A DNA stretch of 64,000 nucleotides from a virus (Duplodnaviria > Heunggongvirae > Uroviricota > Caudoviricetes): positions 1 through 64,000 of the IMG/VR virus record IMGVR_UViG_2908567220_000002. One strand, given 5' to 3'. The stretch's first letter is position 1; each line of letters opens with the position of its first letter. A program made the position numbers and the translations under genes. Below the pieces are notes generated by a model. The model saw nothing but the letters and a program-made list of their open reading frames with translations, did no database searches and had not been told where the DNA came from. Below are positions 28,209 to 59,600 of this stretch, in pieces.

Positions 28209-28480
28209 CTCAACAATGGAAAGATTCTTGTGACGTTCCCGCGTGCGCGTATCACCAGCACGCAGAACAGCAGATTAAAAAACACCTCCAGCCAGCCCGT
28301 TGCTAACGAGCGACCACACAGATAGCTGAGGGGGGCAAAGGCATACAGCAGCATCAGCAGCCAGGCCAGCCATGACATCAGCGGTTTGTGCCTGGAGTCA
28401 CGACGACGATAAAAAAAGAGCGTCAGCACGATAACCGTGCATAACGCCACATTCAGCAATCCGGGAAGGTTACTTAACAT
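28205..28480 (-). CDS. Holin-like membrane protein
   Basis: 91 aa, two to three hydrophobic segments; between holin and endolysin. Confidence 0.5.
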   Translation of the reverse strand: MLSNLPGLLNVALCTVIVLTLFFYRRRDSRHKPLMSWLAWLLMLLYAFAPLSYLCGRSLATGWLEVFFNLLFCVLVIRARGNVTRIFPLLR

Positions 28481-28862
28481 TGCCGCCTCCTCCGCCCCGC
28501 AGGCGCGAGAACAGACCAGACACCAGTGATGCGATATCCTGCTGGTGGATGAATGACATAATCTTTACCGACACCAGCGATACCAGCACCGCACACAATG
28601 CATCTGCAGACGTGCCGTCATAACCAGTTTTTGATGCCACCCAGGCTGAAAGCAAACGCGCACCCAGTACGCCGACGATAAATGACACAAGAAAATGTGC
28701 CGCCACCCGCCATGCTGAAAGCGCCTGCGGTATCGTTGCAACAAACAACGCCCCCGCAAATGCGCCAAACACAATCCCGAAATCCGTTCCGGTAAACAGC
28801 CCGAAAACAGTCGCCCCACCGAGCGCAGCAGCTGTGCCGGAACCGGATAAGGGTTCAGACAT
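28470..28862 (-). CDS. Putative holin
   Basis: ORF 28470-28916; probable start MSEPLSGS; several hydrophobic helices; first gene of the lysis cassette. Confidence 0.5.
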   Translation of the reverse strand: MSEPLSGSGTAAALGGATVFGLFTGTDFGIVFGAFAGALFVATIPQALSAWRVAAHFLVSFIVGVLGARLLSAWVASKTGYDGTSADALCAVLVSLVSVKIMSFIHQQDIASLVSGLFSRLRGGGGGNVK

Positions 28863-28902
28863 ACTTTTTCTCCTGTAAATTAAAAAAGGCCACCAGCGGA
28901 CC

Positions 28903-28949
28903 AAAAAAAACACCACACCAAAGACATCCGCAGATGCCTTTGTGTGGTG
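28903..28949 (-). terminator. Rho-independent terminator immediately upstream of the lysis cassette (tR'-like position)
   Basis: 13-bp imperfect inverted repeat CACCACACCAAAG / CCTTTGTGTGGTG with 13-nt loop, followed on the - strand by a T8 run. Confidence 0.55.
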
Positions 28950-29661
28950 TTATTCAGATTTGATATGTATGGGACGTGGAGCGAATACAAAAAAGCCCGT
29001 CAGAACAGGCCTCAAAAAAAAGCCAGCTCTGGGGAGGCTGGCAGGAATGAAAAATGACTCTCGAGATTATTCATCACAAAACGGATTACTTTGCGCTGAA
29101 CAGAATGCTCCTTCATCGTATATTTCTCAACTGGAGAGACTCATTTTCAGATTTTGTTATCTGTCATATTGACAGTCCCCACTTCTCCGGGGTAGTGAAG
29201 TAAGTAGCGTTTGCTTCCTGTAAATGCCCGAGGGTTATCCATGATCTCTTGTATAAGGCATTCCTCAGTGGACTAATTTCGGAGTTATCATCCCGTTCAA
29301 TTTCATCCAGGATCCCCTACTAAATAAGTTCACCATTCTTCAGGTGGCAGTTTCTTTCAGCCAACCGTGCACTCAACAGCACATTCTTGTCGGACTCAGA
29401 ATAACTCCTGCAAATGCAACAATGATGGCCGTCGCCCCAATAACCTTGTGCTGCCCGCATCCGTAAAAAGCGAAGGCCCCAAATTACCAGAATAAAACCG
29501 AGCAGATATCCGACCTTCGTTACCGCATGGACTTCATTGTCTCATACACCAGGATCAGCGAATTGCAAAGGATGAAGCACGCCCCATGAAGATTCTCCCA
29601 AAAACTATAATTGTAAAAACCAAAGTAGTGGAAGCGAGCACTTGTAACCCCGAACTTTGAA

Positions 29662-29688
29662 TAAAAAAAAACCGCCTGGAGCGGCGGT
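29662..29688 (-). terminator. Rho-independent terminator downstream of the tRNA genes
   Basis: Stem ACCGCC/GGCGGT with 6-nt loop followed on the - strand by T9. Confidence 0.6.
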
Positions 29689-30041
29689 TAATGGCATATA
29701 AAAACGCATGATTTAATTGTATTCAGAAGTGTCGGGTGCCTCCCGAAGCATCCAGCCCCACAAGGATACTGTGGTTTCCCGCTAAACCGACTCTTTAAAC
29801 CACCCTCGCACTGAGGAACACCTCTGTAGTGTTTTTACAACACCGGGATAGTGCATCATCAGCCCTGCCAGGAAATACTAAATCTCCACCGATAATGCAC
29901 CATTCCATTGGTGTAAAAAATCAGCACTGAGGCTATAACCGATCTTAAACCATAGCCTGAGGACCAAAGATGTCTTAAAACAACCTGCCCCCACGTAAAA
30001 AAACACGCCAGTGCTGTATAATTCGTGTTGCCAGAATAATG

Positions 30042-30116
<75 letters not shown>

Positions 30117-30119
30117 CAT

Positions 30120-30195
<76 letters not shown>

Positions 30196-30362
30196 CATTG
30201 GTTCCTCAGGTGTGGATGAGATGCCCGGATACATAAATTACCCTCCCTTGGAACCGACGAAGAATAATAATGAATTCCGCTCCTGTTTCAATACAAACAA
30301 TGTCAGGTATTTAAAACATAATTATACAATATTATAAAAATTAAAAAGTTCGCAAAAAAAAG

Positions 30363-36103: not shown

Positions 36104-36270
36104 CTGTTTTCTCTGCTGGCGCAGCAGGTGTCAGGTGTTCAGGCTGACGTGCGAATTGTAAACCAGAATGCCAGGAAAAAACAAAACCCGCCGAAGCGGG
36201 TTAAGTGCGGGTGCGTTGAGGATGCCTGACTCATCAGAGGTGGCGAGGGATTTCTCCCTCGCCTGGTCTC

Positions 36271-36426
36271 TTACTCCTCAGGTTCGTAAGCTGTGAAGAC
36301 AGCGACCTCCGTCTGGCCGGTTCGGATTCGTACCTCGCAGAGGTCTTTCCTCGTTACCAGTGCCGTCATTATGACGGTTAAACAGATGACGATCAGGGCG
36401 ATTAACATCGCCTTTTGCTGCTTCAT
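36271..36426 (-). CDS. hokD: Hok-family type I toxin (HokD/RelF-like)
   Basis: MKQQKAMLIALIVICLTVIMTALVTRKDLCEVRIRTGQTEVAVFTAYEPEE, near-identical to HokD as recalled; the longer in-frame ORF to 36483 may be the mok-like frame. Confidence 0.8.
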   Translation of the reverse strand: MKQQKAMLIALIVICLTVIMTALVTRKDLCEVRIRTGQTEVAVFTAYEPEE

Positions 36427-36836
36427 AGCCTGCTTCTCCTTGCCTTTCGGCACGTAAGAGGCTAACCTAGATTTGCCGTTCATAGATTGAGCCTCAGATT
36501 AATGTATAAGCGTCTTGCAGGACGCATAATGTTAACTGGGGCTTTTCTCTATCTGCCTTTGGTGTTCATGCTTGAGGCAGATAGCCTCAAGCACCCGCAG
36601 CAATTTTACTTAACTCCCCTTTTCCCACAAATCGTTTTTATCCCTACTGGTAATGTTCTCCCGATGTGGGATTCCCACATTGGAACGAATTCAATCAGTT
36701 AAAGACTCATCAGAATCTCACCTTTCTAAGTGCCCACAGGTGAGGCATTGCAATAAAAATAGCAAACGTGTATAAAAGGAGGTAATGCATGTTTTTCCAG
36801 TCTTATCAATCCATTACTGAGAGTTAAGGGGGCGCC

Positions 36837-44836: not shown

Positions 44837-45155
44837 TCCTTTTTACTGTGGAAAGCTAAATCATATCACGGTCTATGAAGTAAAAAGTGAATTTCGTGAT
44901 GCGGTGAATGCGGCTCAGCGCACGCAGAACAGTTAAAAACACAAGTGTTATGGGTGAATCATCCGGCGTTAATTGCTAACTGGTTAACGTCACCTGGAGG
45001 CACCAGGCACCGCATCACAAAGTTCACTTAGGTGATGAAAGGTAGAGAAAATGTTGAATGTAGCTATTGAAAACCAGAACGGGTGGAATTATAGTGCACC
45101 TGCACCTCATAAAACGGGTGCCGGGCGTGGAAACCCGATGTTCACTAACGCGCAT

Positions 45156-45178
45156 AACCGCGCTCAGGCGGTTTTTTT
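45156..45178 (+). terminator. Rho-independent terminator within the leader upstream of the rha-like gene
   Basis: Stem AACCGC/GCGGTT, loop GCTCAG, followed by T7. Confidence 0.55.
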
Positions 45179-45347
45179 ATGCGTAATGCACAGCCACATT
45201 CAGATTATGGTGGGACGTGCAGGGCAGCCGCAAGGCTGGCCGGGTTCGTTAGTGACCGGTATTTCCACCCCTGTACGTCTCACCACCCTTATGGTCGTGG
45301 AAAACCTTGGTGGTGAGTTAATCAAATTCACTAACGAGGCTGCTATC

Positions 45348-56575: not shown

Positions 56576-56643
56576 AATTACCTCTCGCTTTTCTGCAATA
56601 AAAAAGGCGCCAGAAATGGCGCCCGCATATGGGTTATGAAAAT

Positions 56644-59600
56644 TCAGCTAATCGTGATACCTGCTGTGGATTTCTTCATCACCACAACCAGCAAATCACT
56701 GATACTGGCTGTGGGATACCAGTCATTTACCAGCCACGCTGATACCGAAAACTCCAGCGTCATGTGACCGCGACCAGCAGGCATATCAATAACACCTGTA
56801 TAAACCAGCGTATTATCCAGCGCGGTACGGTTATAAATTTCAGCACCGTTTTTCTTCACTATCAGGCGGCATGACGAATAAATATCGTTATTCTCCCGCT
56901 CATGTTTAGCGCCACGAAACGCCACCGCGGGAATAACAATCTGCCGGTCAAACGGCTGATCGTCATAAACCCTGACGGTAATGGTCCCTGATGGCCACCG
57001 CTCCGGTGCACGGGAGTCCCGGGGGAAAGCTTTGCCCACTGTTTTAACGAGATCGCCTTCAATCTGGTTCGCAGACAGTTTTCCCAGAACCCGACAGTTT
57101 TCATTTATCGTGACATTGTTGAGCGTCCCGGCGTTCGCATTCACACTGCCACTGATATCCGCATTTTTCGCCGTCAGTCGCCCGTCCGGTGTCAGGGAAA
57201 ATGCCGGTGGATTTCCACCGCTGGTAATGGTGGGGGCCGTCAGGCGTTTCAGGAACACGTCGTTCATGAATATCTGATCGCCCTGACCAACAAACATCGG
57301 TTTTGTGTTGCCATTCGCAGGATTAACCATCGCAATCCTGTCCGCCGCCAGCAGCACCTGACTCTGCATGCCGTCAGGGGTGTTCTCAATACCGGCACCA
57401 ATACCCGCGATATAAAGGCGTCCGTCCTGCATCTGCTGCAGCTTCACAGCCCACATGCTGTTCAGGTTATTATTTGTATCAACCTGAACCTTCTGTATCT
57501 GCTGAATTGCCGCACTCTGGTCTTCCAGTTTCTTATTGACGGTCTGCGTGATTTCATTGCTGACATCCGTAATGGACGTCCTGATTTCAGCCAGGTCAGG
57601 CGCAAGCTGACCGTTATCAATCTGCGTCCACAGCTCCTGAGCCAGATGGGTTTTCCCTATCTCGCCTTTGAAAAAATCCAGATAGCCGGATGCGTCATCA
57701 CTCGGCTGACCAACAGCCTCCACGAATGCCGATTTGCCAACGGTGTTCACACTGCGAACGTAAAAATAATAATTATGGCCCGGTTTGATATTGATACTGG
57801 CGGCTATCCAGTACAACGCCGTACCAAGATAGCGTGCTGTGGTTTCAACCTGCCTGATATCCGCAATCCGCTTTTCCGAGAACCAGAACTCAAACTGTAC
57901 CGTCGGATCATAAACCGCAAGATGCGGCGTGGCGGTTATCTGAAAATAGCCCGGCGTCAGCTCAATCCGCGACGGCGCTGCCGGTGCGGCAATCCGGAAC
58001 GATACCGACGCCGGATCGCCCTGCTGCCCCCACGCATTTACTGCCCGGACTGTCAGCCTGTAGTTCCCCAGAGCCAGTTGTGTGAAGCGGTAAGTGGTTT
58101 CCGTCGTCCGGGCCGTGCTGACCAGCCGCTCACTGCCGTCATCCGCTGCCACGGTCAGGCGAAGCAGGAAGCTCACGCCCTTCACCACCTTCGGCGTGTC
58201 CCAGCGGGCCAGCACCTGGTATTCCCCGCTGTCTGCGGTGACTTCTGCGGTCAGATGCTGCACTGCTGGCGGCGTGACACCATTCACCGTGCCGCTCTGG
58301 TCGCCGTCAAAGTGCGCCCCGTTATCCACGATGGCCTCTTTTTCCGGTACATGCTGCACGGCGGTGATGGCATACGTGCCGTCATCGTTCTCACGGATAC
58401 TCACGCAGCGGAACAGGCGCTGGCGCAGCGTCGGCAGCTTCAGCCCCCATACGCTGTATCCGGCAACGCCGTCAGGAACACGGCTCACTTTTACCTTCAC
58501 GCCGTCGGTGACGGACTGGACCTCCACGCCGACCGGATTGCCACTTCCGTCAACCAGGCTTATCAGCGTGGTACCGGAGGATGGCAGCGTGATTTCACGG
58601 TCGAGCGTCAGCGTCCGGGTCTGGCTGTTCACCGCCAGCACGCGCCCGCCGGTGCTGATACCGGCATAGTCATCATCGCAGATTTCAATGACATCGCCCG
58701 GTACATGGCGAAGCCCTTCAGCACCCACGCTGAAGTCCACGGTCTGCGTTTCCAGCAGCTCCGTTTTAATCAGCCACAGCCCGGCGCGGTGTGCCTGCCC
58801 CCGGCTGGTACAGCCAAAGGCATCCATCTTCGTGACGTTACGACCGTAACGGGCAATGGCCTGCGAGTCCTCCACAAGCTCTGTTGCCGTCTCCCAGCCG
58901 TTATCCGGGTCAATCCAGTTCACTTCAACGGCATTATGGCGGTCTTTCAGGGCGCTGAAGCTGTAGCGGAATGGTGCGCCATCATCCGGCATCACCACAT
59001 TACTGCGGTTATAGGTCCACACCTTATCCGATGGTCGGTCCTGCACGAACGTCAGCGTCTGCCCGTTCCATACCGGCATACAGCGCATCGCCGAGCAGAA
59101 ATCACTGAGCACATCCCACGCCTTACGTTGTGTGGTCAGGTACGCATTACAGGTGATGCGCGGCTCCGTACCGCCAAAGCCGTCCGGCACCGACTGGTCA
59201 CAATGCTGGCCGATGACATACAGCGCCCATTTGTCCACATCCGCCGCACCAAGACGTTTCCCCATGCCGTAGCGCGGATGGGTCAGCATATCCCACAGAC
59301 ACCAGGCCATGTTGTTGCTGTATGCTGGCTTAAACGTTCCGTCCCAGATACCGCTGTATTGCCGCGTCTGCGGGTTATAGTTCGACGGCACCTGCAGAAT
59401 GCGCCCGTGCAGATGATAATTACGGCTCACCTGCTGGCTGCCGAACTGCTCCGAATCCACCTGCACGCCGACCAGTGCCGTGTTCGGGTAGCACTGTTTC
59501 ACATCGATGATTTCGGTGTATGACGACCAGAGCGTTTTGTTCTGCAGCTGGTCTGTGGTGCTGTCCGGCGTCATCCTGCGCATCCGGATATTAAACGGGC

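Follow-up and report, generated by a model that had tools for sequence, protein, structure and literature searches.

In this work we have analysed a stretch of 64,000 nucleotides (nt) of tailed-phage DNA (IMG/VR record IMGVR_UViG_2908567220_000002, positions 1 to 64,000; hereafter the window), and in particular the conspicuous gap that separates two transfer RNA (tRNA) genes from the lysis genes of a lambdoid prophage. We consider it probable that this gap is a composite lying in the cargo (moron) slot of the prophage, made up of a tRNA-linked structured trailer RNA, a dead cargo gene with its terminators and the terminators of the holin leader, with the late promoter lying elsewhere. Since the tRNA-Gly gene ends at 30043 and the holin gene starts at the ATG at 28862, the gap runs from 30042 to 28863 (1180 bp), and the sense strand of the phage is the minus strand, to which all coordinates below refer unless stated otherwise. 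A preliminary description of this DNA had placed the gap at 28950-30041; it was right about the location, between the tRNAs and the lysis genes, and slightly short in size. Nearly all the bases of the gap can be assigned to the structured trailer, the pseudogene or the terminators.

The trailer, which the preliminary description missed, is a real conserved RNA structure. It takes up the first 380 nt of the gap, after tRNA-Gly, and its structured part (30016-29663) ends at an intrinsic terminator, T1. By BLAST, the first ~310-380 nt after tRNA-Gly are ~80-86% conserved in many prophages, whereas the remainder of the gap is not. A scan of IMG/VR with a 19-nt trailer motif gave 50 loci, and 28 distinct sequences carrying the full trailer, each directly after tRNA-Gly, were aligned. 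The RNAalifold consensus of these homologues contains 83 base pairs in 12 helices, arranged in three modules. Standard pairs occupy 97.8% of the cells of this structure, compared with 42-52% when the partners were slid by 1-3 columns; 13 of the consensus pairs show changes on both sides (compensatory), and the covariation score was reached by none of 500 shuffles.

Module 1 (29918-30016) consists of a closing stem, CAGCACUG/CAGUGCUG, around three hairpins in a cloverleaf-shaped junction, followed by a run of six U. It has a minimum free energy (MFE) of -36.6 kcal/mol (z -4.4) and corresponds to consensus helices 1-4, which are 91-100% paired and show compensatory changes; in E. coli strain 2015C-4136CT1 (L007 in our set of loci) both arms of the closing stem are swapped relative to the other sequences. 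The module was rejected as a tRNA or tRNA-like element: ARAGORN found only the two known tRNAs, and there was no tRNA-model match in 28850-30050 at E ≤10. Module 2 (29832-29920) is a long near-perfect hairpin of ~30 bp, with an MFE of -37.6 kcal/mol (z -5.6); its helices 5 and 6 hold 30 pairs, 99% paired, four of them changed on both sides. Neither module 1 nor module 2 had a match in Rfam, where permissive thresholds gave only chance-level microRNA and small nucleolar RNA matches, as they did for the 3΄ part of the gap. Module 3 (29663-29832) is a putative small RNA (sRNA) domain of STnc100/PasD-like type, with a closing stem (GAGGUG/CACUUC), four hairpins, a linker and T1. Its inner hairpins include UCGGGAGGCACCCGA at 29746-29732, an AU-rich single strand of ~40 nt (linker, 29725-29690) lies between the closing stem and T1, and its helices 7-11, 95-100% paired, show compensatory changes.

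The trailer is present in 427 of 5426 complete E. coli genomes (~8%), with 71-100% identity, and in 219 of these it is covered to at least 80%. There it is either unannotated or labelled as a hypothetical protein, never as an RNA; annotation pipelines miss it because it lies below the Rfam STnc100 threshold. Modules 2 and 3 were also found without module 1, including on plasmids, and in three IMG/VR contigs (L012, L020 and L026) the 3΄ part of the trailer lies apart from tRNA-Gly. The same three contigs carry a copy of the GGGAGGCACCC hairpin with a terminator ~320 nt upstream of tRNA-Thr (L012:2776, L020:2349 and L026:7491), and L020 has a second copy of the hairpin after tRNA-Gly. The additional copies suggest a duplication of the unit, as occurs with the tRNA and holin block of phage SerU-LTIIb (L001). 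A miniature module 3 was observed in 2015C-4136CT1 (L007:3589-3670; 40.5 bits with the covariance model R1 described below): the four inner hairpins are deleted, leaving the closing stem, a 5-nt loop, the linker and the terminator. When one genome per species was scanned with the 19-nt motif, a single match was obtained, in CAYLSD010000006.1 (L065), part of a metagenome-assembled genome labelled Fuscovulum sp. (an alphaproteobacterium), which may be a binning or contamination artefact.

By its sequence and predicted fold, module 3 appears to be a remote relative of the STnc100/PasD group of sRNAs, for which formal Rfam membership failed. An Rfam scan, proposed in the preliminary description, gave a match in the 3΄ domain of the trailer, where the STnc100 model (RF02076) aligns with 29848-29659 at 23.7 bits (E 0.009), below its gathering score of 47. 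The alignment runs end to end (model positions 1-206), with the elements in the same order and the CGGGAGGCACCCG hairpin identical. Module 3 has the architecture of STnc100 (closing stem, internal hairpins including GGGAGGCACCC, linker and intrinsic terminator), and the trailer shares its genomic setting, both being found in lambdoid prophages with Q and the tRNAs on one side and the lysis genes on the other. The best homologue (A19) scored 30.1 bits and none of 15 further motif-bearing loci attained the gathering score; the true STnc100 of phage 933W scores 207.7 bits. In the reciprocal direction, a covariance model (R1), built solely from the window-type family and only roughly calibrated, was used to search 105 kb and matched the genuine STnc100 of 933W (E 0.0012), PasD2 (E 0.005) and PasD1 (E 0.04), all three at precisely the right coordinates. 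PasD1 and PasD2 are themselves under the STnc100 gathering score (37.7 and 41.4 bits). Zhu, Shabalina and Storz (doi 10.64898/2026.05.13.724894, bioRxiv), who use blastn similarity as the criterion for PasD, consider PasD and STnc100 to be of shared ancestry; by this measure (word size 7, against PasD1 and PasD2) module 3 gave only chance matches of 13-18 nt. STnc100 overlaps the Hfq-bound sRNA EcOnc27/sRNA103, encoded 3΄ of stx2B (PMC12711010, PMC12370729) in the slot downstream of PR΄ (PMC4104026, PMC12370729, PMC12711010), and PasD, like EcOnc27, is an Hfq-bound sRNA (PMC12711010, PMC8550237). A further R1 match in the window (56598-56767; 24.4 bits, E 3e-4) overlaps the 3΄ end of an open reading frame (ORF) of 1159 amino acids (aa) and its terminator; it is probably driven by the terminator and hairpin and was discarded.

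Downstream of T1 the gap contains the remains of a cargo gene. A BLAST check, also proposed previously, was made with tblastn and revealed this remnant and no intact small gene. The 164-aa protein WP_021560133.1, predicted to have two transmembrane helices, matches 29587-29147 in four collinear pieces and three frames (aa 24-37, 37-68, 99-141 and 151-164) with in-frame stops, the best piece being aa 99-141 (58% identity, E 2e-12). The pseudogene keeps its Shine-Dalgarno sequence and the ATG at 29587, is stopped after 10 codons and then suffers at least three frameshifts; the original stop context (..DNKI*) is found at 29149-29147. An intact copy occupies the same position, after a shortened trailer, in 2015C-4136CT1, and the same broken state is seen in E24377A, ST2350 and C8, which differ only by substitutions. 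On this sequence evidence, these ~440 bp are a decayed remnant of a cargo gene. This is a small family, with 8 clusters among 5.8 billion proteins, all from E. coli, and it belongs to phrog_6315 (E 2.4e-27), a phrog of unknown function with two predicted membrane helices, one member of which lies in another accessory slot, in a Rac-like prophage. Pfam, NCBIfam, PADLOC and PDB-profile searches assigned no function to the intact homologue, whose AlphaFold model has a pLDDT of 54, too low a quality to base a fold comparison on.

The preliminary description had taken this position for a cargo site, and the relatives that share the trailer and the holin bear it out. In them the trailer terminator and the holin ribosome-binding site are separated by 157 to 1700 bp, and at least eight size classes can be told apart. 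Cargo is missing altogether from the minimal form, where the 157 bp between the trailer and the holin leader are mostly terminator hairpins, and other forms are filled with TerB and a DUF3927 gene, two hypothetical genes, an IS66 element or the intact 164-aa gene; in 933W the equivalent region holds stx2AB. The slot thus has the attributes of a moron: a variable insert, a deviant base composition (44.6% GC in the gap compared with 52.3% in the window) and terminators of its own (T2 and T3). No promoter specific to the cargo gene was found, and in 2015C-4136CT1 the ATG comes just 36 nt after T1. In prophages of enterohaemorrhagic E. coli (EHEC), the slot that follows PR΄ has been described as a moron site with sRNA genes (Tree et al. 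2014, PMC4104026). The earlier suggestion that the gap holds the decayed remains of lost cargo therefore stands for the ~40% of it occupied by the pseudogene and falls for the trailer and the holin leader, which are conserved.

Five predicted intrinsic terminators lie in the gap, T1 and T3 recognised by a terminator scan, T2 by its sequence, and T4 and T5 by sequence and fold. T1 (29663-29689) has a 7-bp GC-rich stem followed by U9 (-12.4 kcal/mol, z -3.4). T2 (29014-29042; GCCAGC-N9-GCUGGC and U8) ends the cargo gene unit and is followed by T3 (28988-29013; GAGGCCUG-uucu-GACGGGCUUU and a U-rich tail), whose fold alone is weak (z -1.5). T2 is kept after the intact gene in 2015C-4136CT1 and in the remnant of PSS-15, which retains only the last five codons of the cargo gene and the tandem T2/T3, while T3 is kept in both, where its two arms differ yet can still pair; the tandem thus follows intact and decayed versions of the gene alike. 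Immediately before the holin gene are T4 (28903-28951; a stem of ~19 bp and U8) and T5 (28882-28902; a GC-rich hairpin, GGUCCGCUGGUGGCC, and U6), the latter ~10 nt from the holin ribosome-binding site, and the 89 nt that contain both (28951-28863) fold at -33.8 kcal/mol (z -5.0). Among 25 distinct holin leaders T5 is nearly invariant, and T4 is recognisable in all except one (L016), with at least one compensatory change (A-U to G-C), whatever the cargo upstream, be it a DUF3927 gene, IS66 or hypothetical genes. Of the two terminators said to bound the gap, the one placed at 29662-29688 and the tR΄-like hairpin placed at 28903-28949 both proved to be minus-strand intrinsic-terminator structures (29689-29663 and 28951-28903); as a boundary the pair does not hold, the first lying 350 nt inside the gap, which contains three more (T2, T3 and T5).

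We propose that the trailer is part of a self-contained unit formed by a pT-like promoter, tRNA-Thr, tRNA-Gly and the 380-nt trailer ending at T1, which would be transcribed in the lysogen. The putative promoter is of the sigma-70 type (TTGAAA-16-TATTAT, 30264-30291; 10/12 in the consensus scan), and a TTGAAA...TA(T/A)TAT pair is also present at ~-90 from tRNA-Thr in the relatives L001, L003, L004 and L005. ARAGORN and the Rfam tRNA model identified tRNA-Thr (anticodon UGU, 30121-30196; 69.8 bits) and tRNA-Gly (anticodon UCC, 30043-30117; 65.6 bits). RNase P or RNase E may free module 3 from the tRNA precursor, possibly with the contribution of RNase III cutting the long hairpin of module 2, and, by analogy with STnc100/EcOnc27, PasD and the sRNAs derived from tRNA spacers, the released RNA could act with Hfq as a base-pairing sRNA through the AU-rich strand next to T1. 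The cargo position proper would then contain only the wreck of the membrane-protein gene and its terminators T2 and T3. In phage λ, Q-modified polymerase starting at the late promoter reads through terminators. By analogy with λ and 933W, T1 to T5 would stop transcripts from pT or from the cargo before they reach the holin gene in the lysogen, and after induction Q-modified polymerase coming from ~31960 would pass all five.

Several points weigh against this proposal. Everything said here of how the trailer is transcribed and processed, of its binding to Hfq and of its targets is inference. Module 3 stays under the STnc100 gathering score, the reciprocal R1 matches are weak (E 0.001-0.04) and come partly from one 13-nt hairpin and the terminator, and the module alone folds no better than shuffled sequence (z -0.9). 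As the aligned prophages are closely related, the shuffle control overstates significance and the slide control is the more informative of the two. Only weak hexamers precede module 3, so co-transcription with the tRNAs had to be assumed for lack of a convincing promoter of its own, and the U6 run after module 1 could end many transcripts ahead of modules 2 and 3. The trailer could instead be a purely cis-acting 3΄ end of the tRNA operon, carrying processing sites and terminators by which the maturation of the tRNAs would be shaped and having no role in trans, its likeness to STnc100 reflecting a shared ancestry of the terminator region. This view, which we consider unlikely, draws on the same U run and missing promoter, on the position of all 28 aligned homologues directly after tRNA-Gly, on the weak similarity to STnc100 and PasD, and on the annotated terminator found right after the tRNAs in 933W. 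However, 380 nt with 12 conserved helices exceed the needs of termination or tRNA 3΄ processing, modules 2 and 3 occur without module 1 and on plasmids, the 3΄ part is separated from tRNA-Gly in three contigs, and the relatives STnc100/EcOnc27 and PasD are bound by Hfq (PMC8550237, PMC12711010). A bolder hypothesis, which we put forward tentatively and hold to be possible rather than probable, is that lambdoid prophages of enterobacteria possess in this trailer a non-coding RNA of three domains that has not been described before. It would comprise an STnc100-type Hfq-dependent sRNA processed from a constitutive tRNA precursor instead of being transcribed from a promoter of its own, with module 2 as the RNase III site, and it would include, as modules 1 and 2, novel RNA elements that have roles of their own in processing, stability or protein binding.

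The remaining explanations concern the gap as a whole. That it is nothing else than decaying, non-functional junk left by lost cargo fits its low GC content, the clear pseudogene at 29587-29147, where this explanation does hold, an ORF content like that of random sequence, and the rarity of its middle 790 bp, which are present whole in only six of the 5426 E. coli genomes and had no megablast or blastn match among 50,697 phage records. Those six genomes, including that of enterotoxigenic E. coli (ETEC) E24377A, hold the entire gap at 98.6-100% identity, and RefSeq annotates nothing there. E24377A matches the window at 100% over 28950-29740, at 99.7% over the trailer and at 99.6% over 97% of a 1401-nt query. 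We find this explanation very improbable, since the trailer is maintained at 71-100% identity in 427 genomes with substitutions that preserve its structure, and the holin-leader terminators are conserved in 25 distinct contexts. A hidden small protein gene has even less to recommend it, and we give it next to no credence. Short ORFs do exist, and in some genomes the RefSeq annotation of the homologous trailer includes hypothetical proteins. The claim that the gap has no ORF of at least 60 aa was literally wrong: there is a 76-aa GTG ORF on the plus strand (28942-29172), antisense across four terminators, and a 65-aa ORF (29878-30075) overlapping tRNA-Gly. Neither is credible, and the stretch does behave as non-coding, with a sense-strand maximum of 46 aa inside the gap and one ORF of at least 60 aa observed compared with 1.7 ± 1.2 in shuffled sequence; together with the tRNAs it makes up the window's longest run (1446 bp) free of ORFs of at least 90 aa, the runner-up having 733 bp. 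The 76-aa and the 46-49-aa ORFs have no match in Pfam-like libraries, the former is disrupted in relatives by a stop or a frame change, the proteins annotated as hypothetical in relatives align with the window only in changing frames and on both strands, and substitutions keep RNA pairing instead of a reading frame. The search thus ended with no intact small gene and with a region related to the cargo regions of related phages, either of which, had it come out otherwise, the preliminary description would have taken as a refutation. That description had also suggested a Q-dependent late promoter in the gap, with a 6S-like leader ending at one of its terminators. Terminators are present, and in λ pR΄ and tR΄ do precede the lysis genes; nevertheless we regard this as a very remote prospect. 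Between Q and the gap there are 3.8 kb with the tRNAs and further genes on the same strand, a promoter scan found no sense-strand promoter in 30042-28863, and the minimal relatives have only 157 bp there, mostly terminator hairpins. In L006 and L002 the Q gene is immediately followed by ~120 bp that match, at 79-86%, the window at 32000-31881 and not the DNA after the window's own Q. This segment, 1.8 kb upstream of the gap, is the likely 6S-like module (31992-31881): TTGATT-17-TTCAAT, a short leader (~50-80 nt, according to where transcription starts), and a strong terminator, AACCCGC-uuuau-GCGGGUU with U7 (31904-31881), with a fold of -36.9 kcal/mol (z -5.9). Its hexamers are under the scan threshold, and the pR΄ assignment, which combines them with homology, is a weak point of the composite interpretation as well. 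A faint isrK-like Rfam match (31955-31882, 21.6 bits) was not used as family evidence.

The gap is embedded in a late region that begins with the gene of a DUF1133-type Q antiterminator (34410-33853; PF06576, E 8e-99). It is followed by an ATPase gene (33757-32573; PADLOC AbiLi, E 7.9e-25, with weak AAA_15/AriA-like matches) and that of its 177-aa partner (32573-32040; phrog_10204), an AbiL-like pair apparently inserted between Q and the late segment, because the DNA next to Q in relatives matches 32000-31881. A small phrog_331 ORF lies between the 177-aa partner and a DNA methyltransferase gene (31409-30363), after which come the tRNA unit and the gap. In the prophage of strain 401651 a homologous AbiL-like pair sits elsewhere (L006:1-726), and in E24377A a Ser/Thr kinase and a PP2C phosphatase occupy the position of the pair. 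The Phage_holin_8 gene (28470-28862; PF16931, E 1.2e-22) starts at the ATG at 28862, as supported by its ribosome-binding site (AGGAG, 28874-28870) and the equivalent RefSeq annotation; the GTG start at 28916 given by the program's list of ORFs (28916-28470) was rejected, as it would cross T4 and T5. A second holin, an M15 endolysin and a spanin complete the lysis genes on the same strand. The prophage of E24377A is defective 3΄ of the gap, because gpW, a short portal gene and a truncated capsid pseudogene come right after a holin that is itself shortened (351 nt; L003, 7347-9467). Elsewhere in the window, the second-longest stretch free of long ORFs (36104-36836) contains a sok antitoxin RNA (36421-36596, 110.4 bits), which implies that the prophage has a hok/sok module. 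On the plus strand, isrK RNA (65.9 bits) adjoins a C4 antisense RNA (80.3 bits) at 45102-45290, and a second C4 copy is found 44.6 kb away (605-688), all above the Rfam gathering scores. The isrK/C4 regions are immI-type antirepressor control regions, and the two C4 copies may mean that the window spans two neighbouring prophages or includes the same prophage end twice.

What do these results mean? A conspicuous "empty" stretch of a prophage late region holds a covariation-supported RNA that is found in ~8% of complete E. coli genomes. What is new is that the STnc100/PasD group is extended by a variant of three modules that is linked to tRNAs, and the remainder consists largely of known kinds of element: as a cargo slot the gap is unexceptional apart from one RNA variant that lacks annotation. 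Our data suggest a possible route by which prophage sRNAs could arise through the processing of a tRNA precursor and, if this reading is true, the supply of sRNA would be coupled to tRNA expression in the lysogen. The chain of terminators before the holin illustrates how constitutive cargo can adjoin lethal lysis genes. Current concepts are unchanged; the annotation is refined and one hypothesis on processing is offered.

The general layout is that of λ (pR΄, 6S RNA, tR΄) and 933W (pR΄, qut, tR΄, pT): after Q come the late promoter and its short, terminated leader, then the promoter of the tRNAs, the tRNAs themselves, the cargo and finally the lysis genes, with terminators that would let through only polymerase modified by Q, and the annotated tRNA promoter pT of 933W is the counterpart of the TTGAAA-16-TATTAT promoter of the window. 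In contrast with both phages, in the window the AbiL-like pair separates the late module from Q, which is of the DUF1133 type. Similarly, the slot resembles the morons described previously (Juhala et al. 2000; Tree et al. 2014, PMC4104026) in being low in GC, flanked by terminators and variable, with an sRNA nearby, although, unlike in EHEC, its protein-coding moron is dead and it holds no toxin or virulence gene.

Regarding the RNA itself, STnc100 (EcOnc27, sRNA103) of Stx2 and Salmonella prophages also lies after Q and the tRNAs and before the holin, and shares with module 3 a length of ~170-200 nt, a closing stem, hairpins including CGGGAGGCACCCG, a single strand and an intrinsic terminator. 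The sequences of the internal hairpins and of the linker differ, and module 3 is joined to the tRNA-Gly trailer and two extra structured modules, while STnc100 follows stx2B. In 933W, AsxR (88.1 bits; L062:2985-3037, minus strand) is convergent directly after the STnc100 terminator. The window has no convergent partner of the AsxR/AgvB type beyond T1, whose hairpin lacks a U tract on the plus strand, and Rfam and blastn searches found no counterparts of PasA, PasC, AsxR, AgvB or Esr41 ahead of the holin. PasD1 and PasD2 of enteropathogenic E. coli E2348/69 (Pearl Mizrahi et al. 2021) are, like module 3, sub-threshold relatives of STnc100 located between Q and the holin. They differ in following a DUF3927 gene instead of a tRNA and, by our reading of the sequence, in having apparent promoter elements just upstream (a TTGACT -35-like and an AT-rich -10-like element), and the published PasD seed (UGUGAG) is absent from module 3. 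Finally, the 3΄ external transcribed spacer of a tRNA can act as an sRNA or sponge, as occurs with 3΄ETS-leuZ, of ~50 nt. The trailer, at 380 nt, is far longer and has no sequence relation to 3΄ETS-leuZ, yet it is likewise a structured RNA between the last tRNA of an operon and its terminator, and may be processed in a comparable way.

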